From Dehalococcoidia bacterium (lineage in GTDB: Bacteria > Chloroflexota > Dehalococcoidia > Plut-88900), in assembly GCA_965207225.1 (NCBI GenBank), contig CBDBLV010000005.1:1152001-1216000 (forward strand): a stretch of 64,000 nucleotides of DNA, written 5' to 3'. The notes under the pieces were generated by a model. It saw only the letters and a program-made list of their open reading frames with translations. It did not search any database and was not told the DNA's origin. The stretch's first letter is position 1, and each line of letters starts with the position of its first letter. Shown here one piece after another: positions 25,899 to 36,035 of this stretch. A program made the translations under genes and the position numbers.

Positions 25899-27149
25899 AT
25901 GGTTGACCATGCCGTCGAGGAGCGCGTCCTGCGCCAGATCAAGACCGAGCAGACCGTCAAGCTGGCCAGCGACCTAATCTCCATACCCAGCTTCAAGACC
26001 GAGGAGCAGAAGGTCGCACGGTTCCTGGCTCGATTCTTCCAGCGCCGCGGCTACGAGGTTGATCTACAAGAAGTCGAGCCGGGCCGGTACCAGACGATCG
26101 CGACGCTGAAGGGGTCGGGTGGGGGTAAGAGCCTGATGCTGAACGGGCACATAGACATCGACCCCTTGGCCATGGGCTGGGTGCGGGAGCCGTTCACGCC
26201 CAGCTGGGAAGGCGACCGGCTGTACGGGGCGGGCGTCAACAACATGAAGGGCGGCGTAACCGCAATCATCACTGCCGCCGAAGCGATTCGGAAGGCCAAG
26301 GCCCCGATGAAGGGCGACCTTGTCGTGGCGTGCGTGGTTGGCGAGCTACAGGGGGGTGTCGGGACAGTCTACGCGTTGAAAAACGGTATGAGGACGGATG
26401 GGGCGTACGTGGCTGAACCCACGGGCGACGGGGACAACATTATGACGACCCATGCAGGCGTGGTTGAACTGGCGATCAGCACGATTGGGCTGTCACAGCA
26501 CGTGAGTCGGTCTCACCTGGCCGTGGATGCGCTGGAGATGATGACAAAGGCTATCCCAGCAATCAAGAACGTGGACTTCACATACGAACACAGGCCCGAC
26601 CTGCCAGACCTGCCGCGAATCATTTGCGGGACGATTATCGGGGGTCGGGGGAGGAACCACGACCTGAAGGGGCCAAATTTCACCTGCGACTACTGTACGG
26701 TGATAGTCGATGCCCGGATAGTCCCCGGGCAGTCCCACGTCACGGTGAAGGCCGACCTGGACAGGGTGATGAGCAAATTCAAGGAAGAGGACCCGAACTT
26801 CGAATACGAGATCGTTACGCCCGTGCCACCCGAGTACAAGGTAATGACCGAGTTCATGAACCCGCTGGACGTTCCGAAGGACAACGTGATAGTGCAGAAC
26901 CTGGAGAAGGCATACACGAGGGTGTCGGGGCGGGCGCCGGATAAGGTCGGGGCTATTCTGACGCAGTCATACGCAGGCAACGACAGCTGCCACATCTGGG
27001 AGGCGGGGATACCGGTGTGTCTGATGGGGGCGGAGAACGGTCGGGACCAGAAGGGCGAACCCGACTCCTACGTCATAGTGCCGAGCATGGTGCAGTTGGC
27101 GAAGACGTACGCGATGGCGGCGCTGGACTGGTGCAACCAGGAGAAGTAG
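25899..27149 (+). CDS. M20 (ArgE/DapE-like) deacylase, copy 1
   Basis: LMLNGHID, LYGAGVNNMKGG, VVGELQGG, VAEP. Confidence 0.88.
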   Translation: MVDHAVEERVLRQIKTEQTVKLASDLISIPSFKTEEQKVARFLARFFQRRGYEVDLQEVEPGRYQTIATLKGSGGGKSLMLNGHIDIDPLAMGWVREPFTPSWEGDRLYGAGVNNMKGGVTAIITAAEAIRKAKAPMKGDLVVACVVGELQGGVGTVYALKNGMRTDGAYVAEPTGDGDNIMTTHAGVVELAISTIGLSQHVSRSHLAVDALEMMTKAIPAIKNVDFTYEHRPDLPDLPRIICGTIIGGRGRNHDLKGPNFTCDYCTVIVDARIVPGQSHVTVKADLDRVMSKFKEEDPNFEYEIVTPVPPEYKVMTEFMNPLDVPKDNVIVQNLEKAYTRVSGRAPDKVGAILTQSYAGNDSCHIWEAGIPVCLMGAENGRDQKGEPDSYVIVPSMVQLAKTYAMAALDWCNQEK

Positions 27150-27174
27150 GACGAGGTACAGAAGAGGCAATTCG

Positions 27175-28419
27175 ATGGATGCAAGCGCAAAGCAGAAAGT
27201 CCTCTCCAAGATCAGGGACCGGGAGGTCGTAGACCTTTGCAGCAACCTGCTGCGGATCCCGAGCTTCAAGACGGAGGAGCAGAAGGTTGCCAGGTACCTG
27301 GCCGGCTACTTCCGGCGCCGGGGGTACGAGGTTGATCTGCAGGAGGTGGAGCCGGGTCGGTACCAGACGATAGCGACGCTTAAGGGGTCGGGCGGGGGGA
27401 AGAGCTTGATGCTGAACGGTCACATAGACATCGACCCCCTGGCCATGGGCTGGGCCCGAGACCCCTGGAGTCCAAGCTGGGAGGGCGACCGGCTCTACGG
27501 GGGCGGCGCTTTCAACATGAAGGGCGGCGTGGCGTCGATGATATCCGCGGCGGAGGCGATACGGAAGTCGGGGGTGGGGTTGAAGGGGGACATCGTGGTG
27601 GCGTGCGTTGTGGGTGAGCTGCAGGGAGGAGTGGGGACGGTGCATGCCTTGGAGAGCGGAGTATCGGCGGACATGGCCATTGTTGCGGAGCCTTTCGGGT
27701 CACGGACCATCATGACCACCCACGCAGGCGTTATAGGGATGGCGATAAACACCCTGGGCTACTCCACGCACATCACGGTGCGGGAGCAGGGAGTCGACGC
27801 CATAGCGAAGATGATGAAGGTGATCGATGCGGTGGACAAGGTCGAACTCAGGCACACGCCCCACCCCGAGCTGCCGGGTCTGCCGCGTATCAACTGCGGG
27901 GCAATCATAGGGGGTCGGGGGAGGGACCAGGACCTAAAGGGGCCCAACTATGTAAGCGATTTCTGCACCTCCATCTGGGACGTGCGGATTGTTCCGGGCC
28001 AGACCGCGGAGACCGTGGAAGAGGATGTTCGTAAAGTTCTCGAGGCTCTTGGCGCCGAGGACCCGGACTTAAGGTGGGAAGTAGAGATTCCACCGCCCGC
28101 CAAGTACAAGGGTGTGGCGGTCACCATGGACCCTGTGGACATCCCGAGGGACGAGTATATAGTCGGGGCGGTGGCGCGGGCGATGGAAGAGCACACAGGT
28201 TCGCCACCGGAGAATATCGGGGCAATTCTTCCCCGTTCATATGCGGGGAACGATACCTGCCACCTCTGGAAAGCGGGCATCCCGTGCGTGCTCAACGGCC
28301 CCGGGGGCGACCGAACCTTCGATGACGTGCCGGACACCTTTGTCTACGTAAGCGAGATGGTCGAGTGTGCGAAGACTCACGCCCTGACCGCACTTGAAGT
28401 CTGCAACCTGTCCGCCTAG
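27175..28419 (+). CDS. M20 (ArgE/DapE-like) deacylase, copy 2
   Basis: Clear paralog of copy 1 with the same motifs. Confidence 0.88.
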   Translation: MDASAKQKVLSKIRDREVVDLCSNLLRIPSFKTEEQKVARYLAGYFRRRGYEVDLQEVEPGRYQTIATLKGSGGGKSLMLNGHIDIDPLAMGWARDPWSPSWEGDRLYGGGAFNMKGGVASMISAAEAIRKSGVGLKGDIVVACVVGELQGGVGTVHALESGVSADMAIVAEPFGSRTIMTTHAGVIGMAINTLGYSTHITVREQGVDAIAKMMKVIDAVDKVELRHTPHPELPGLPRINCGAIIGGRGRDQDLKGPNYVSDFCTSIWDVRIVPGQTAETVEEDVRKVLEALGAEDPDLRWEVEIPPPAKYKGVAVTMDPVDIPRDEYIVGAVARAMEEHTGSPPENIGAILPRSYAGNDTCHLWKAGIPCVLNGPGGDRTFDDVPDTFVYVSEMVECAKTHALTALEVCNLSA

Positions 28420-28433
28420 CCGGGAGACTGACA

Positions 28434-29681
28434 ATGGCTACCCAAACACTAGAAAGAGTAACAAACCGGGTGAAGGAGGACTGGCTCGTCTCCTTCGCGA
28501 GGAAGCTGATCGACATACCCAGCTTCAAGACCGAGGAGTCGCAGATCGCCTTGTTTCTCGCATCGAATTTCCGGCGCTGGGGATACGATGTTGACCTGCA
28601 GGAGGTCGATCCCGGGCGATACCAGGTGATAGCGACGCTGAAGGGCTCGGGGGGCGGGAAGACACTGATGCTGAACGGCCATATAGACCAGGACCCGCTA
28701 TCCATGGGCTGGAAACGAGACCCGTGGACCTCCAGCGTAGAAGGCGACCGGCTGTACGGGGCGGGAATCTACAACATGAAGGGCGGGGTAGCGTCGATAG
28801 TTGCGGCGGCGGAGGCGGTGCGTCGGTCAAAGGCGGCTCACAAGGGCGATATCCAGGTTGCCTGTGTGGTGGGAGAGCTGCAGGGGGGAGTCGGGACGGA
28901 GTATGCGCTGGAGCACGGGTACCGGCCCGACATGGCCATAGTCGCAGAGCCCAACGATGCGGATACCGTCCTCACCGTACACGCCGGGTGGCTGGAAATC
29001 GCAATTCACGTCCTGGGCAGGTCGCGGCACATAAGCCAGAAGGAGACGGGGGTCAACGCCATCCAGAAGATGTCAAAGGCCATTGAGGCCATCAACGGGC
29101 TTGAACTCACTCACACCCACTTCCCAGCGCTTCCCTCTCTCCCCCGGCTGCACGTTGGCGCCATAATCGGAGGGCAGGGCAGGAACCACGTTATCAACGG
29201 GCCCAACTTCGTCCCCGACTTCTGCACGGCGTTAGTGGATGGCCGGATGGTGCCGGGGCAGAGCTCAGAGGTGGTACTCGAGGATGTGCGGCGGGCTTTG
29301 GACGGGATCAAGGAGTCGGACCCCGACTTCGAATACGAACTGGAGATGCCACCCGATCCCGAGTACCGCGTCCTCCGCACCATCATGGAGCCGATGAATA
29401 TGTCCGCCGACGAGGAGATAGTGAAAGCGGTGGGTCGGGGGTACAAGGCGGTGACGGGTGGAGAGCTGGCGCACGTCGGCAGCAAGCTGCCGAACTCCTA
29501 CTCGGGGAACGACACTACGCACCTGTGGCAGGCCGGGATCCCCTGCGTCCTATACGGCCCCGGGGGCAACTGGGACGCTGCCGTAGACGAACCCGACCAC
29601 TACATCCGCATCAGCGATATGGTGACCGCAGCCAGGGTAATGGCTGCGACGGCGCTGGACGTTTGCAATCAGGAGGCCTGA
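28434..29681 (+). CDS. M20 (ArgE/DapE-like) deacylase, copy 3
   Basis: Clear paralog with the same motifs. Confidence 0.88.
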   Translation: MATQTLERVTNRVKEDWLVSFARKLIDIPSFKTEESQIALFLASNFRRWGYDVDLQEVDPGRYQVIATLKGSGGGKTLMLNGHIDQDPLSMGWKRDPWTSSVEGDRLYGAGIYNMKGGVASIVAAAEAVRRSKAAHKGDIQVACVVGELQGGVGTEYALEHGYRPDMAIVAEPNDADTVLTVHAGWLEIAIHVLGRSRHISQKETGVNAIQKMSKAIEAINGLELTHTHFPALPSLPRLHVGAIIGGQGRNHVINGPNFVPDFCTALVDGRMVPGQSSEVVLEDVRRALDGIKESDPDFEYELEMPPDPEYRVLRTIMEPMNMSADEEIVKAVGRGYKAVTGGELAHVGSKLPNSYSGNDTTHLWQAGIPCVLYGPGGNWDAAVDEPDHYIRISDMVTAARVMAATALDVCNQEA

Positions 29682-30370
29682 TCGGGCACTTCCAGCTTCT
29701 CCTTGAGCCAGCCGAATAGCAACTCATCAAGCTCTTCACGGCATTCCATCAGGCCGTGGCCCGCGCCTTCGAAGTAGCGGAGTTCCTTGGGCTGCTGGGC
29801 GAGGTCGTAGATGAACTGGGAAGCGCGGGGTGGAAGGATGGCATCGTCGGTGCCATGGACCAGGAGGAGGGGTCGGGGGGCTATGTCGGCCACCCGCTGT
29901 GCACCGGCGCTCTGGCTTGAGAGACCAGCGACGGCAACCACCTTGTCATTGTACGGTGCTGCAGCGATGACTACGGCCCCGCCGAAGGAGTGCCCGACCA
30001 GGGCCACTCTCTCAAAACCGACGCCCGACAACAAGGTAACCCCAGCCAGCGTATCCAGAACGCATTCATAGAGGTCGTTGGGCAAACGGTAGTCGAGGCG
30101 GAGGGAGGCTATGCCTTCGGCGGTCAGTTTTTCGGCAAGGCGTACGTAGATGCCGCCGGCGGGGCCCGTGACGCCTCCCCCGGCTCCCCAGACCCATACG
30201 ACGGCGGCATCCATCGTCTGGGTAGGATGAAAGAGGCTGAAGATGTTGCCCCGGGAAGTGTTGATGAGGGTACCTTGACCGGAGTGGCCTTCCGGGGCTC
30301 GGAAACCCTGGTACCCCTGCACCTGGATTTGTTCGTCGTTGGCGGGTGGAGGGCCAGAGGGGCCAGTCAT
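29669..30370 (-). CDS. Alpha/beta hydrolase
   Basis: GHSFGG, LLVHGTDD, EGAGH; ATG overlaps the upstream TGA (TGATG coupling). Confidence 0.85.
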   Translation of the reverse strand: MTGPSGPPPANDEQIQVQGYQGFRAPEGHSGQGTLINTSRGNIFSLFHPTQTMDAAVVWVWGAGGGVTGPAGGIYVRLAEKLTAEGIASLRLDYRLPNDLYECVLDTLAGVTLLSGVGFERVALVGHSFGGAVVIAAAPYNDKVVAVAGLSSQSAGAQRVADIAPRPLLLVHGTDDAILPPRASQFIYDLAQQPKELRYFEGAGHGLMECREELDELLFGWLKEKLEVPDQAS

Positions 30371-31887
30371 CAGGATATGACCAGGTCCCTGGCCTGCACT
30401 ATCGACCACAGTTTGGCCTCCGCCGTTTTAGCAGAGGCAACGGGGTTGTCGGCGAAGGTGGCGAAACCGCAGTCGGGGGTGAGGAGAAGGCGCTCCTTGC
30501 CAAAGAGGTCTACGCCCAGATCTACGCTTTCGCGGATGGCGTAGGGGGTTTCTACGGCGTCGAGCTTCTGGTTAACGACGCCGATGCCGATGCGCTTGTC
30601 CTCGGGCAGCATGCCCAGCACCGAGGCCTCTCCTGCCCGAGGAGTGGACAGTTCAAAGAAGAGTGTCCCGACGTTTGCGCTCTTGAGCAGGTCCAACAAA
30701 GGCCTGTAGTCTCCTGAGAGTGCCGCCGACTCGTCACGGGTCCAGTTACCGCGGCAGATGTGGAGGCCCAGGCGGTCGGTGGGGAGGTCGCAGACAACCT
30801 CGTTAAGGAGGTTGGTTGCGAAGTCCAGTTCGGCGTCGGGAGGGAGCTTTTCGCTCAGGGCGCCGCACATGAATGTCCGGTTACCGGTTGCGTTGCCGAA
30901 CACGACCTCGGTGAGAACGGGTTCATCGAACTGGACGAGGGCTGCGCCGGAGGCGAGGAGGAAGTGAATCTCTTCGCGGAGGACTCGAACTACGTCCTGG
31001 GCGAGGTCTTCACGGGTCTGGTATGGGAGGTCGGTGAGGCAGTCGAGCCACATGGTGCGGGTGAGGAGGTAGGGGCCAGGGAGGGCAATCTTGATGGGCT
31101 TCTCAGTGCACTCCCGAGCAAATTTCAGTTCGTGGAGGGCGAGGGGACGGCTTCTACCCAGCTTTCCGTAGACTACGGGGTGTCGGACCTCGCCAGCGGG
31201 GACATCCAGGGCTCGAAGCTCTTTTTCGAACTTCTCCGGGTCGTCGACCATTGCGGTCAGGTCGGTCAATGGAATCAGCTGGCAGTTGTCGAGGAGGCCC
31301 CCGACAAAGCTGGCGTAACTGTCCCGTCGCTGTTCGCCGTCAGTCACCACATCAACGCCGGCCCGGACCTGGGCGTCGATTGAAAGTCGGACCGCGTCGT
31401 CGGCGGTGGCCTGGAAGTCTTCCTCGTCGAGCCGACCCTCAAGCCGGTCGTGGATTGCCTGGAGCATCCAGCGGGGGCGCGGCCAGCTGCCGATACCCAT
31501 GACGGACAAAGGGGCAATCTTCGGGGCGGGGGCGGGTGGGGGGAGGTGGTCGGGTATAGATACCTCCACTCGGAGCTGTTCCCCTATGGAGGGAACGGGC
31601 TGAACCGGGGCTGCGGCCCGGCTTCTCGATAATGGGCCCTTGCTCACCAGGAAGCTGCGCTGGCCGTTGACCCTGGTCCAGGAGACCATTTCGTTGCTGG
31701 TCATCCGGCACCAGGCGGGCAGCTCCACTTCGACTGTGGAGTCGGTGGAGAGGATTTCGAGCAAACCGCCGCGTTCCATGGGGTCGATGTGGCGGCGAAT
31801 CAGGAGCAGGAGCCCGCTGCCGCAGTCCAGGTCTCCGCCGTCGAAGCTGACGTCCGGGGTGTAGGGATGGCGGTCTACGGGGTCCAT
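30370..31887 (-). CDS. TusA-like domain fused to cobalamin-independent methionine synthase II (MetE C-terminal) domain
   Basis: N-term FDGGDLDCGSGLL...LEILSTD...LPAWCR; C-term GSWPRP, TDGEQRR, QFDEP, HICRGN, TPDCGF. Confidence 0.85.
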   Translation of the reverse strand: MDPVDRHPYTPDVSFDGGDLDCGSGLLLLIRRHIDPMERGGLLEILSTDSTVEVELPAWCRMTSNEMVSWTRVNGQRSFLVSKGPLSRSRAAAPVQPVPSIGEQLRVEVSIPDHLPPPAPAPKIAPLSVMGIGSWPRPRWMLQAIHDRLEGRLDEEDFQATADDAVRLSIDAQVRAGVDVVTDGEQRRDSYASFVGGLLDNCQLIPLTDLTAMVDDPEKFEKELRALDVPAGEVRHPVVYGKLGRSRPLALHELKFARECTEKPIKIALPGPYLLTRTMWLDCLTDLPYQTREDLAQDVVRVLREEIHFLLASGAALVQFDEPVLTEVVFGNATGNRTFMCGALSEKLPPDAELDFATNLLNEVVCDLPTDRLGLHICRGNWTRDESAALSGDYRPLLDLLKSANVGTLFFELSTPRAGEASVLGMLPEDKRIGIGVVNQKLDAVETPYAIRESVDLGVDLFGKERLLLTPDCGFATFADNPVASAKTAEAKLWSIVQARDLVIS

Positions 31888-31908
31888 GAAGGGCTCATCT
31901 GCGGCTTA

Positions 31909-32271
31909 TCAGTACGAGACGCAGGGGCTGCCGTCGGAGAGAAACTCCACCAGCTTTGCTCCACCGACTATGGTCGCACCGTCAACGAGGGAGTTCTCGT
32001 CGAGGCCGCGCTTCTTGAAGCAGGGGGCACAGACGAAGATGTCGCCACCGAAGGATGCGAAGCTTTCCATCAGGTCCTTGAGAGGCAGGAAGCCGTCCTC
32101 GTGGATGTCGTCGACGTAGCCCTTCTGGGCGACTCGTACACCCTCGGTGCTGAGGAAGACCATAGTCTCTTTCTCCGAGCCGAGGGCGGCGTTGGCGATT
32201 ACGAAGGCCACAGTAGCCTTGTCGGGGTTGTCTTTGGCATGGGTAAGGCTGACACAGAACTTATCGGACAT
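31909..32271 (-). CDS. DsrE family sulfur-relay protein
   Basis: KATVAFVIANAA, FLSTEGV, VCAPCFKKRG. Confidence 0.85.
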   Translation of the reverse strand: MSDKFCVSLTHAKDNPDKATVAFVIANAALGSEKETMVFLSTEGVRVAQKGYVDDIHEDGFLPLKDLMESFASFGGDIFVCAPCFKKRGLDENSLVDGATIVGGAKLVEFLSDGSPCVSY

Positions 32272-32289
32272 TTGGGTTCCTTTCAGGGT

Positions 32290-32523
32290 CTATTTTTGTT
32301 CGATCCAGTAGTGAGGGTGGTCTGCTTTGAGGAGTCGGCGGCCGGTGAGCCGGCACCAAGCGGGGATGTCTTGGTGGGCGCCGAGGTCGTAGGTTGTGAG
32401 CTTGAACACCTCGCCCGGGGCCAGGGGCTGGACGCGCTGCCTGAGCAGGATGATGACCTCACCGCAGCCCATGTGGCCTGCGTCCCAATAATCGGCTGCA
32501 GCGAATTCCTGAAGGGTGTCCAT
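32290..32523 (-). CDS. TusA/SirA family sulfur carrier
   Basis: WDAGHMGCGE...PGEVFKLTTYDLGAHQDIPAWCRLTG. Confidence 0.85.
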   Translation of the reverse strand: MDTLQEFAAADYWDAGHMGCGEVIILLRQRVQPLAPGEVFKLTTYDLGAHQDIPAWCRLTGRRLLKADHPHYWIEQK

Positions 32524-32682
32524 TCGGGTAGCAGTTTGGCCGTTATCAGTGTTAACCACGGATATGAAACGGCATTGGAGGAGTGTACCCAAGGGACGCA
32601 TTGGCTACAAGGGGGTGCATGTGGAGTCTGCTATCCTTAAACTGTCCGGTGAAATACCCATGCTTTCAGTGGAGGAATCGGG

Positions 32683-33294
32683 ATGACGGAACTGGCAAAT
32701 AAACGTTTGGACTATCACGTCCCCGCTCGAGAGGGCAAGGCGTTCAGGGTGTCCAAAGGCGAGTTGATCAAGGTGATTGATCTGAGAGGCGGCCAGGCGG
32801 TCGACCTCTTCGCTTTCAACGTCGAAAACGTCAAGGAATTCCTTAGCGCCCACCACACCCGGCCTTCCATCGAGAGGCTGTTCCCCATTGAAGGGGAGGC
32901 TTTCTATACCCAGGAGCGTCGGCCCATTATCACCCTCGTGAAGGACCACAGCCCCGGCATCCATGACCTGCTTTTCGCTGCGTGCAACCCGAGCCGGTAC
33001 CGGGAGTTGGGGGTGGAGGGGTGGCACGCCAGCTGCGAGGAGAACCTGCAGAAGGAGATGGAGAAGATCGGGGTGCCGGGCGTCGAGGTCCCGCAGCCGG
33101 TCAACCTGTTCACCAATTTCCCGGTGTTCCCCGATGGGCGGATGGGCGTAGCTGCTCCGCAGACCAAGGCCGGTGACTACGTGATTCTCAGGGTGGAGAT
33201 GGACTGCTGGATATGTGTCTCGGCGTGCCCGCAGGACCAGAACGACACCAACAGCGGCAACCCCACGGACGTCAGTGTGGAAGTTGGTTCGTAA
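32683..33294 (+). CDS. DUF1989 (urea carboxylase-associated) protein
   Basis: GGQAVDL, HDLLFAAC, HASCEENL, NLFTN, SACPQD. Confidence 0.88.
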   Translation: MTELANKRLDYHVPAREGKAFRVSKGELIKVIDLRGGQAVDLFAFNVENVKEFLSAHHTRPSIERLFPIEGEAFYTQERRPIITLVKDHSPGIHDLLFAACNPSRYRELGVEGWHASCEENLQKEMEKIGVPGVEVPQPVNLFTNFPVFPDGRMGVAAPQTKAGDYVILRVEMDCWICVSACPQDQNDTNSGNPTDVSVEVGS

Positions 33295-34744: not shown

Positions 34745-35515
34745 TCAGACCAGGGGCCAGGGGACCTCCCACCGGCTCCGCAGCACGGGCAACACTGGCT
34801 CACTGAGCACTTCCTGCATTCTCCTGGCCAGCCAGTCAATCTCTTCCTCGTCGAGTAGACCGTGTAGCCGGCTGGCAAGGCCCTCGGGGGTGTAGAACCG
34901 GGCGAGCTCACGGGCCACCGACTCGAGACAATCTCTCGCAATCTTTTCCCCGCCGAAGTCCCAGATGACCGTGCGGAGCTTGGGGTCGATGCTGAAGGTG
35001 AGGCCATGGTCGATGCCCCAGACCTTGCCGCCCGGATCCTTGATGCAGTGGCCGCCCTTCCTGTCCGTGTTGTTGACCAGCAGGTCGAAGACGGCGATGC
35101 GCTTCACCTCCTCTGGGTGGGTGTCCCGGAGGTCGAAGTAGTGGGTCTTGTGGGCATCGCGGATGAAGAGCTGGAGGGAGCCTTCGCCGTAGGGGCCGTC
35201 CCAGATGACGGTCGGGGGGATGAAGTGCCAGCCGAGGGTCTCGCTGAGCACGTAAGCGGCGACCTCCCTCTTGTACAGAGTGCCTATGGGGAAGTCCCAG
35301 AGTGGATTTTCGCCGCGGCGGGGCTTATAGATGCCGTAGTCGAAGGGCTTGCCGTCGAGGGAGAGGGCCACGAGGAAGGTGTAGTTAGAGCCCCTCAGGA
35401 CCTGGTCGCACCTGTCCGCCGTGGCCCGGGTAAGGTCGCGGCATATCTTGGGATGGCGGGAGGGGTCGATGCTCGGCCGAAGGGGGTCATCCGTCCCCTC
35501 GGCGTCCGGCGCCAT
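34745..35515 (-). CDS. SCO1664 family protein (PI3/4-kinase-like fold)
   Basis: GSNYTF, YKPRRGENPLWDFP.GTLYKREVAAY, NNTDRKGGH, IDHGLTF. Confidence 0.88.
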   Translation of the reverse strand: MAPDAEGTDDPLRPSIDPSRHPKICRDLTRATADRCDQVLRGSNYTFLVALSLDGKPFDYGIYKPRRGENPLWDFPIGTLYKREVAAYVLSETLGWHFIPPTVIWDGPYGEGSLQLFIRDAHKTHYFDLRDTHPEEVKRIAVFDLLVNNTDRKGGHCIKDPGGKVWGIDHGLTFSIDPKLRTVIWDFGGEKIARDCLESVARELARFYTPEGLASRLHGLLDEEEIDWLARRMQEVLSEPVLPVLRSRWEVPWPLV

Positions 35516-35516
35516 G

Positions 35517-36035
35517 CTATTGGAGCCTTTCGACAGCGTTGACGGGGTGGCCGTTGGAGCGGGAGCAGAAATGGCCGTCGGGGTTGATGGGCTCGTGGCA
35601 GAGGGGGCAGATGGGCCTGCCGGAGGAGCAGACCCGCAGGCTTTCATCGGCGAATTGCATCACCTGGGCCACCGTGGCCTCGAAAACGAGAGAGGCGACA
35701 TCGGCCTCGTCTTCAACATCGTAGTTCCAGAAGCGGAAAATGCCGCCCTCTTCGTCGAACTCCACGGCCTGCTTGCCCAGCTTGAATTCGAGGACCGGGG
35801 AGTCGAGGGCGGGGAAGTCGAGGCTGGGGGACTGGGCCCCCTCCATGTCATCCATCGTGCCCAGGGTCCTCTTGAGGTGGATCCCCAGCTCCAGGAGCTG
35901 CTCCTTTTCGAGCCAGATGACAGCCGTGCCCAGCTCCGAGCCGACCATTAGCCGGAAGGTGCGCTTACCGGGTTCGCCGATGGCCTCGGGGGCAAAGGTG
36001 TTGACGAGTCCCATGTCCTGGGTGGATTCGGGCAT
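35517..36035 (-). CDS. DUF3090 family protein
   Basis: AIGEPGKRTFRL, LEKEQ, GRPICPLCHEPINPDGHFCSRSNGH. Confidence 0.88.
   Translation of the reverse strand: MPESTQDMGLVNTFAPEAIGEPGKRTFRLMVGSELGTAVIWLEKEQLLELGIHLKRTLGTMDDMEGAQSPSLDFPALDSPVLEFKLGKQAVEFDEEGGIFRFWNYDVEDEADVASLVFEATVAQVMQFADESLRVCSSGRPICPLCHEPINPDGHFCSRSNGHPVNAVERLQ

Follow-up and report, generated by a model that had tools for sequence, protein, structure and literature searches.

The window analysed here is a stretch of 64,000 nucleotides (nt) from a Dehalococcoidia bacterium (assembly GCA_965207225.1, contig CBDBLV010000005.1, positions 1,152,001 to 1,216,000 of the forward strand). It carries on its minus strand a compact cassette in which two small genes, for proteins resembling the sulfur carriers TusA and DsrE, are followed by a gene that fuses a TusA-like domain to a MetE-type zinc barrel. 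All coordinates are window positions, unless a locus or genome identifier stands before them. The leading gene (32290..32523) encodes a small TusA-like carrier of 77 amino acids (aa), with a GCG motif that contains Cys20 and an AWC motif that contains Cys57; its start was taken as the ATG at 32523, giving a length that agrees with that of its relatives. The second (31909..32271) encodes a DsrE-like carrier of 120 aa with the motif Cys81-x-x-Cys84 (CAPC). The third (30370..31887) is a single open reading frame (ORF) of 505 aa, comprising an N-terminal TusA-like domain (31624..31887; residues 1 to ~88, with Cys22 in DCG, and Cys60), a linker (31513..31623; residues ~89-125) that is at first disordered and then conserved and proline-rich, and a core-MetE (Meth_synt_2) zinc barrel (30370..31512; residues ~126-505 and the stop codon). 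Behind it, also on the minus strand, lies an alpha/beta hydrolase of dienelactone-hydrolase type (29669..30370; 233 aa from its ATG; Pfam matches Hydrolase_4, Abhydrolase_6, and DLH). An earlier note on this DNA had described four co-oriented genes with short gaps, the last translationally coupled, and the sequence bears this out: the gaps between the TusA, DsrE and fusion genes are 18 and 21 nt, and the fusion stop and hydrolase start overlap by one base in TGATG.

A scan of one genome per species returned 242 pattern matches, of which 199 encoded relatives of the fusion, and the best 80 were kept as loci. These span at least 11 phyla, and derive from Dehalococcoidia, Latescibacterota, Acidobacteriota, Planctomycetota, Verrucomicrobiota, Binatia, Burkholderiales, Rokubacteria, Myxococcota-type and other metagenome-assembled genomes (MAGs). 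The DsrE gene adjoins the fusion or lies close to it in 77 of the 80 (two of the three loci without it are contigs of only 1.6 and 4 kb), and a small TusA gene, at 40% identity or more, is present in 69; six Binatia-type loci hold DsrE and the fusion and no small TusA. Clustering of all ORFs and of immediate same-strand neighbours across the 80 loci yielded no further universal partner. The hydrolase was found in six loci, all from closest relatives in the window's own genus, and a DUF1989 gene, an M20 peptidase, CinA and an inositol monophosphatase are each confined to those same six. The functional unit is the set of three genes, TusA-like, DsrE-like and fusion, while the hydrolase is a lineage-specific add-on of the window's genus, outside the conserved system. 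The operon of four proposed earlier is in this sense trimmed: its three-gene core is conserved across loci, and the hydrolase, at 6/80, loses its place in it.

The fused form is widespread and uniform in length. Its 120 best matches in a protein collection share 73-96% identity, all but one being about 500-525 aa long, and the ESM Atlas holds five clusters of it. Among 301 sampled Dehalococcoidia genomes, 27 gave matches to the fused enzyme (65-100% identity), full-length except in G264, where residues 118-503 only are covered; nine of these carriers belong to the window's genus (the window included), 16 to one other genus, in which all 16 genomes are carriers, and two are single genomes. Of 151 sampled Acidobacteriota genomes, one, the centre genome, carries the cassette. 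The fused proteins form one clade (62-96% identity), and the earlier concern that the fusion might be sporadic is answered by that single clade, by the 199 relatives among species representatives, and by the conserved cassette. In a quick IQ-TREE analysis (LG+G4) of 91 rows (81 fused and 10 unfused sequences, none left out), the branch separating fused proteins from unfused paralogues received 100% in the Shimodaira-Hasegawa-like approximate likelihood ratio test, with a length of 0.82. Terriglobia and Latescibacterota sequences nest within Chloroflexota groups in the same tree, which suggests transfer between phyla. The cassette is strongly conserved, apparently mobile, and self-contained.

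The enzyme half of the fusion is a MetE-fold barrel that has moved away from every named family to which we compared it. It matches Pfam Meth_synt_2 (PF01717) at 86.7 bits over residues 132-481 (cut-off 21), and no Pfam match to Meth_synt_1 was found on the fusion, in agreement with the earlier observation that the N-terminal half of MetE is missing. Its score falls below the cut-off of canonical MetE (TIGR01371; 61 bits, cut-off 930), and of each of five further NCBIfam models: PRK04326 (146 bits, cut-off 406), PRK09121 (104, 392), PRK00957 (88, 258), PRK06233 (75.5, 576), and PRK01207 (40.5, 399). An AlphaFold2 model (mean predicted local distance difference test score, pLDDT, 82.9; predicted template modelling score 0.76) consists of an N-terminal domain of strand-helix-strand-helix-strand-strand topology, a disordered stretch, and the barrel; pLDDT stays below 50 at linker residues 90-102, and reaches 94-95 in the blocks that span residues 111-130. 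The top Foldseek match of the model is MesD (PDB 3RPD; template modelling score 0.81 on the target), followed by C-terminal MetE halves, and 3RPD is likewise the best PDB match by sequence (E 1.3e-21).

The predicted zinc ligands, assigned to motifs by Pfam and PDB alignments, are His376 and Cys378 (HIC), Glu412, and Cys473 (PDCG), and they are invariant in 81/81 sequences; the conservation alignments comprised 70 small TusA, 78 DsrE and 81 fusion sequences, the window included. According to the available part of Price et al. (2021; PMC7857596), the homocysteine contacts of this fold are the serine in GSxP, the glutamate in DGE, and the aspartate in DEP. The corresponding positions in the fusion, aligned to the motifs of 3RPD, are Ser134, Glu185 and Asp321, which are also invariant, and Cys341 is kept in 81/81. 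More broadly, the motifs read from this locus in the earlier note (GCG, DCG, CAPC, HIC, the glutamate, and PDCG) are all present and near-invariant in 70-81 homologues.

What sets the fused clade apart is a further trio of residues. Cys202, His236 and Cys283 are kept in 81/81 fused sequences, and are lacking in all ten of the closest unfused paralogues. The latter correspond to residues ~120-502 at 40-46% identity, occur in many of the 301 Dehalococcoidia genomes, that of the window included, and in 10/10 cases keep Ser134, Glu185, Asp321, Cys341 and the four zinc ligands. An alignment to Thermotoga maritima MetE locates His236 within the RPPIIYG hairpin, and Cys283 on the loop that follows the LTGP strand; we take these regions to be the donor side of the barrel. 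A 50%-identity library extends the fused form to a representative of 52% identity, in which His236 is replaced by Gln. The only unfused sequences in that library with the Cys/His/Cys set, P0243 and P0262, were set aside, as both start exactly at internal Met130 and their gene calls look truncated. P0304 and P0285 have the look of chimeric or frameshifted calls, and the OsmC-like appearance of P0304 found no Pfam support. A homologue search among proteins of 30-276 residues returned fragments only and is silent on unfused orthologues.

The unfused paralogue of the window's own genome (L110 7734-10363; G000:C5:1723733-1726362) adjoins a divergent second Meth_synt_2 gene, with a tandem-rhodanese gene 650 nt after it; upstream lie two genes of the phosphotriesterase family and one for a homocysteine S-methyltransferase. 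The rhodanese was considered as a lead and dropped, being a neighbour in only two of ten paralogue loci.

Conservation of the carriers is equally strict. The small TusA matches Pfam TusA (PF01206) at 27.8 bits (E 2.3e-6), just missing the cut-off of 28.6, and the fused domain at 23.4 bits (E 5.4e-5), below the same cut-off; some of the homologues have a recorded PF01206 match. In place of CPxP they carry GCGE (small TusA) and DCG(S/G)G (fused domain). Alignment of the small protein to Escherichia coli TusA (PDB 3LVJ, E 5e-4) pairs Cys20 with the catalytic Cys19, and Cys57 with Cys56, and Cys20 is likewise aligned to Cys19 of 1DCJ. Both cysteines are kept in 70/70 small TusA sequences, while the fused domain keeps Cys22 in 81/81 and Cys60 in 79/81, such that the conservation of the TusA cysteine, on which the earlier note had made its proposal depend, is complete. 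The DsrE-like protein matches Pfam DsrE (PF02635) at 54.6 bits (cut-off 22.7); its closest solved relative is 3MC3, a structural-genomics DsrE/DsrF protein (E 2.7e-11), on whose cysteine Cys81 is placed, presumably at the active-site position of DsrE. Cys81 is kept in 78/78 sequences and Cys84 in 77/78, and mean column identity is 82% (72 sequences). A predicted complex of fusion, DsrE and zinc scored 0.01, with a mark of 0.32, and weighs neither way on binding.

The genomic setting bears directly on what such an enzyme might do. The window's genome, which is 92% complete, contains six Meth_synt_2 matches, among them a tandem core-MetE pair (G000:C5:692679-694541) whose first member scores 374 bits on PRK04326 (a 303-aa piece was scored) and is probably the housekeeping methionine synthase; a TAG was read between the two tandem genes in one search. 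Because a separate gene scores 374 bits on this model, on which the fusion reaches 146 against a cut-off of 406, the fusion is best seen as a diverged paralogue of the PRK04326 kind. Neither full MetH nor canonical MetE was found in the window's genome, which does hold several homocysteine S-methyltransferase domains. We further examined 25 cassette genomes, picked from a set of 50 and mostly chromosome-level assemblies. MetH exceeded its cut-off in 13 of them and canonical MetE in one, with a MetE-like C-terminal half in three more, while eight, at the thresholds used, gave no match to MetH and none that was MetE-like. From these counts the cassette usually co-occurs with another methionine synthase, and a back-up role is compatible with them.

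Only one neighbourhood points to a pathway. In six Binatia-type loci, metY, metX, metW and a phosphorylase of purine nucleoside or methylthioadenosine type lie divergent from the cassette, which ties it, in this single lineage, to homocysteine and methionine metabolism. Other recurrent neighbours are lineage-bound. Latescibacterota loci include seven with sulfatases and five with a small cupin-like ORF (named by eye) downstream of the cassette. ZnuA lies upstream in 5/80 loci, all Dehalococcoidia, and a link to zinc uptake was set aside, as we take this association to be limited to one lineage. Four Burkholderiales or Rokubacteria loci have a PhnCDE-type ATP-binding cassette (ABC) transporter beside or within the cassette, and in three betaproteobacterial loci it lies between DsrE and the fusion. 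In the one locus of this kind examined, from a betaproteobacterial MAG (L055 3237-5962 and 7539-11524), PhnD/PhnE/PhnC-type transporter genes separate the DsrE gene from the fusion, behind which come genes for another PhnD-like binding protein, for a double permease, and for an ATPase of aminoethylphosphonate or oxyanion type.

Our preferred reading, held tentatively and with somewhat less than even confidence, is that the cassette encodes a relay-fed, neofunctionalised MetE-fold enzyme that acts on a homocysteine-type substrate. We favour neofunctionalisation over a housekeeping methionine synthase because the window's genome has a more canonical core synthase elsewhere, and because MetH is present in 13/25 cassette genomes. 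The earlier note had suggested that the fused carrier delivers a persulfide or thiol to the zinc site. This idea fits the clade-specific Cys202, His236 and Cys283, the alignment of Cys20 on the catalytic Cys19 of TusA, and the presence of a housekeeping synthase elsewhere; that a carrier cysteine actually reaches the zinc is something we infer, as we do the direction of the relay, its substrate, and every chemical step.

In E. coli, sulfur passes along the Tus relay from IscS to TusA, TusBCD, TusE and finally MnmA. The cassette would comprise a cysteine relay laid out in like manner, in which sulfane sulfur (or possibly selenium) bound to the carriers is handed on, and enters a pocket predicted to bind zinc and a homocysteine-type amino acid, where C-S or S-S chemistry might take place instead of ordinary methyl transfer. 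The chemistry of MetE, and of the epoxyalkane:coenzyme M transferase XecA, is that of a zinc-bound thiolate attacking a carbon, and for this reason the joining of a carrier persulfide to an activated homoserine is conceivable. In the single reaction that seems most likely to us, zinc would activate a persulfide on Cys22, which might then attack the gamma-carbon of activated homoserine; the product would be a mixed disulfide between carrier and homocysteine, to be resolved by Cys202 and Cys283, or by the CxxC of DsrE, with release of homocysteine. MnmA and ThiI employ a persulfide and a resolving cysteine, and the proposed release step would parallel their scheme. Stated in full, the cassette would be a carrier-fed homocysteine synthase independent of pyridoxal 5'-phosphate (PLP), in which a Tus-like persulfide relay ends in a MetE-fold zinc alkyltransferase that attaches the sulfur (or selenium) of the carriers to activated homoserine; we consider this specific form doubtful.

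Several observations weigh against the relay-fed reading. The homocysteine-binding residues that are kept would suit a methionine synthase equally well, and the near absence of canonical MetE from cassette genomes (1/25) would fit a cassette that stands in for it. Both TusA-like parts fall below the Pfam cut-off and lack CPxP, and across the 80 loci the cassette shows no conserved gene for a cysteine desulfurase or a rhodanese. In the Binatia loci, homocysteine can already be made by the MetY encoded there. A gap in homocysteine synthesis lends no support either. In the window's genome neither MetX, MetA nor HcyBio was found, and there is a single PLP enzyme of Cys/Met metabolism, of unclear type; the 25 cassette genomes gave three strong and six weak matches to MetX, and none to MetA or HcyBio. 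The same gap is common without the cassette in Acidobacteriota, where MetX was found in 30 and MetA in 12 of the 151 sampled genomes, and the cassette in the one mentioned above; the idea that the cassette fills a pathway gap was rejected, as the gap is not specific to it. Finally, scans of the window stretch and of 21 of the 80 loci detected no S-adenosylmethionine or cobalamin riboswitch and no other Rfam regulatory element, a result that counts as well against the first of the alternatives considered below.

That alternative makes the fusion a core methionine synthase of a fifth family, independent of folate and cobalamin, whose barrel would methylate homocysteine from a donor yet to be named; the TusA and DsrE proteins would be accessories, much as MesX serves MesD, and might keep the zinc-thiolate reduced in air, gate the enzyme, or handle the donor. 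Invariance of the zinc ligands and of all three homocysteine contacts of MetE and MesD argues for it, as do the MesD-like fold, the adjacency to metY, metX and metW in Binatia-type loci, and the scarcity of canonical MetE together with the eight genomes that lack MetH and MetE-like matches. Opposed to it are the PRK04326-type synthase already present in the same genome, with its far higher score on that model, and a Cys/His/Cys set that has no role in known MetE chemistry; moreover, the 80 loci show no conserved neighbour that would make a methyl donor. We also know of no way in which cysteine carriers could donate a methyl group. On balance we regard this alternative as unlikely, though less so than the other two.

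Comparison with described core synthases illustrates both sides of this question. MesD, like the fusion, is a single barrel of the MetE C-terminal type, it provides the best fold and PDB sequence match (3RPD), and its zinc ligands and Ser/Glu/Asp homocysteine contacts are kept in the fusion. According to the available part of the report on MesD, it needs an accessory protein, MesX, encoded alongside (Price et al., 2021; PMC7857596), and that part contains no mention of TusA, of a fusion, or of the word fused. The partners differ, being TusA and DsrE in the cassette and DUF1852 (MesX) for MesD. A search for MesX (PF08908) gave no match in the window's genome, but none in 14 control genomes either, and clustering across the 80 loci revealed no MesX-type gene. 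The fusion further differs from MesD in its score on PRK09121 (104 bits, well under the cut-off of 392), in its extra N-terminal TusA-like domain, and in Cys202, His236 and Cys283. The archaeal-type, MesA-like core synthase described by PRK04326 is the best NCBIfam model for the fusion and has domain, zinc site and homocysteine site in common with it, the difference being the distance of the fusion from that model's cut-off.

A conceptually close parallel is the MetE-fusion of Phaeocystis and other protists, in which, according to the available part of Rao et al. (2024; PMC10861871), a core MetE is fused with a PP-binding carrier domain that bears a thiol, and with a disulfide oxidoreductase. 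This arrangement favours the methionine-synthase alternative, as the eukaryotic protein is taken there to be a methionine synthase, its methyl donor not known (PMC10861871). Its accessory domains come from families other than TusA and DsrE, and the prokaryotic homologues reported in the same part of that study align to the MetE domain only (PMC10861871). Uncharacterised core-MetE homologues in marine bacteria are also mentioned in the accessible portion of a further paper (PMC12478193).

Known sulfur relays offer the complementary comparison. The pairing of a TusA-like protein with a DsrE-family protein recalls Tus/Dsr systems (DsrE3-TusA), and the layout of carrier, carrier and terminal enzyme that of the Tus relay. 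In contrast to those systems, the cassette has GCG or DCG in place of CPxP, one small DsrE with a CxxC rather than a DsrEFH/TusBCD trimer, neither TusE nor DsrC, and as its terminal enzyme a MetE-fold zinc barrel; our literature search found no described relay with such a barrel as end point. CysO-CysM and HcyS-MetY draw the sulfur of cysteine or homocysteine from a protein-bound donor, and resemble the cassette in concept only: their carriers are ubiquitin-like thiocarboxylates that work with PLP enzymes. XecA, in which a thiolate at a MetE-fold zinc site attacks a non-methyl carbon, is likewise similar by concept, through its chemistry. Neither a TusA-MetE fusion nor the three-gene cassette was described in any paper that our literature search found.

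A second alternative is that the cassette handles selenium, in that the carriers bind selenide as perselenide, and the enzyme makes or dismantles a seleno-amino acid or passes selenium towards SelD. In its favour, SelD occurs in 48/50 cassette genomes; the window's genome encodes SelD with one in-frame TGA (G000:C5:649975-650898), SelA and SelB; and SelB lies within 6 kb, downstream of the cassette, in 2/80 loci, from one Dehalococcoidia lineage. The PhnD-family protein of the four transporter-bearing loci also matches a putative selenate-binding model, weakly (85 bits, cut-off 250), but fits phosphonate models better (153 bits). Against this, SelD was found in 231/301 sampled Dehalococcoidia and in 121/151 sampled Acidobacteriota (the sample used for the MetX, MetA and cassette counts), tallies which include genomes flagged as unpublished (G243 in Dehalococcoidia, G399 and G374 in Acidobacteriota); apart from the counts on these samples, no conclusion depends on those genomes. 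As this background is high, and as cassette genomes are also interrelated, 48/50 amounts to only a modest enrichment. Neither SelA nor SelD lies close to the cassette in any of the 80 loci, and in the window's genome all three selenium genes are distant from it, the nearest being SelB at about 48 kb; SelU was not found in that genome. None of the 80 loci has a TGA codon at any conserved cysteine position. With the high SelD background, and adjacency, through SelB, in only two of 80 loci, the selenium link is weakened to the point where we consider it improbable.

Two features of SelD in the sampled genomes may be recorded here. SelD with an in-frame TGA, of selenocysteine type, occurs in most of them, and SelD as such in 77-80% of Dehalococcoidia and Acidobacteriota as against 2/14 named controls. 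In Binatia and some Acidobacteriota (e.g. G340, G342 and G348) the open frames that contain the SelD match are ~750-880 aa long, which suggests fusion to another domain.

The last alternative, that the carriers form no working relay, the fused TusA domain being a structural cap for the lost N-terminal barrel and the small genes serving another pathway, can draw on the sub-threshold Pfam scores and missing CPxP of both TusA-like parts, on the absence of small TusA from Binatia-type loci, and on the ABC transporter that separates the DsrE gene from the fusion in four loci, but is very improbable in view of the invariance of Cys22, Cys20 and Cys57, of a DsrE linkage that persists over at least 11 phyla while all other neighbours change, and of carrier genes conserved as much as the enzyme.

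Beside the operon, three tandem paralogues of M20, or ArgE-DapE-type, deacylases (416, 414 and 415 aa) are arranged head to tail on the plus strand (25899-29681); the third copy overlaps the 3' end of the hydrolase on the opposite strand, and this copy, the only one searched, is present in the loci of the six closest relatives. On the other flank, a DUF1989 protein of the urea-amidolyase-associated or trimethylamine N-oxide demethylase N-terminal type is encoded divergently from the cassette (32683-33294, plus strand), a linkage limited to the window's genus (6/80 loci). The intergenic region between them (32524..32682) is presumed to contain the cassette promoter; searches around the operon, this region included, turned up neither a sigma-70-like site nor an Rfam element. 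Further on, a protein of 300 aa with a weak match to PI3/PI4 kinases (24.4 bits, below the cut-off) overlaps a DUF3090 protein of 172 aa (34745-36035, minus strand).

Methionine and homocysteine synthesis belong to core metabolism, and several of their variants, such as MesA-D and the MetE-fusion, have been found only recently. The cassette described here keeps 62-96% identity over at least 11 phyla, appears to move between phyla, and couples a putative sulfur-carrier relay to a MetE-fold zinc site; with three genes, it is small and open to direct test. If, as we tentatively propose, the relay feeds the zinc site, then the MetE fold would extend to carrier-protein substrates, and TusA/DsrE trafficking would gain a new end point. 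Should the more doubtful proposal of a carrier-fed homocysteine synthase prove true, uncultured aerobic phyla would possess a sulfur route into methionine that needs no free sulfide.

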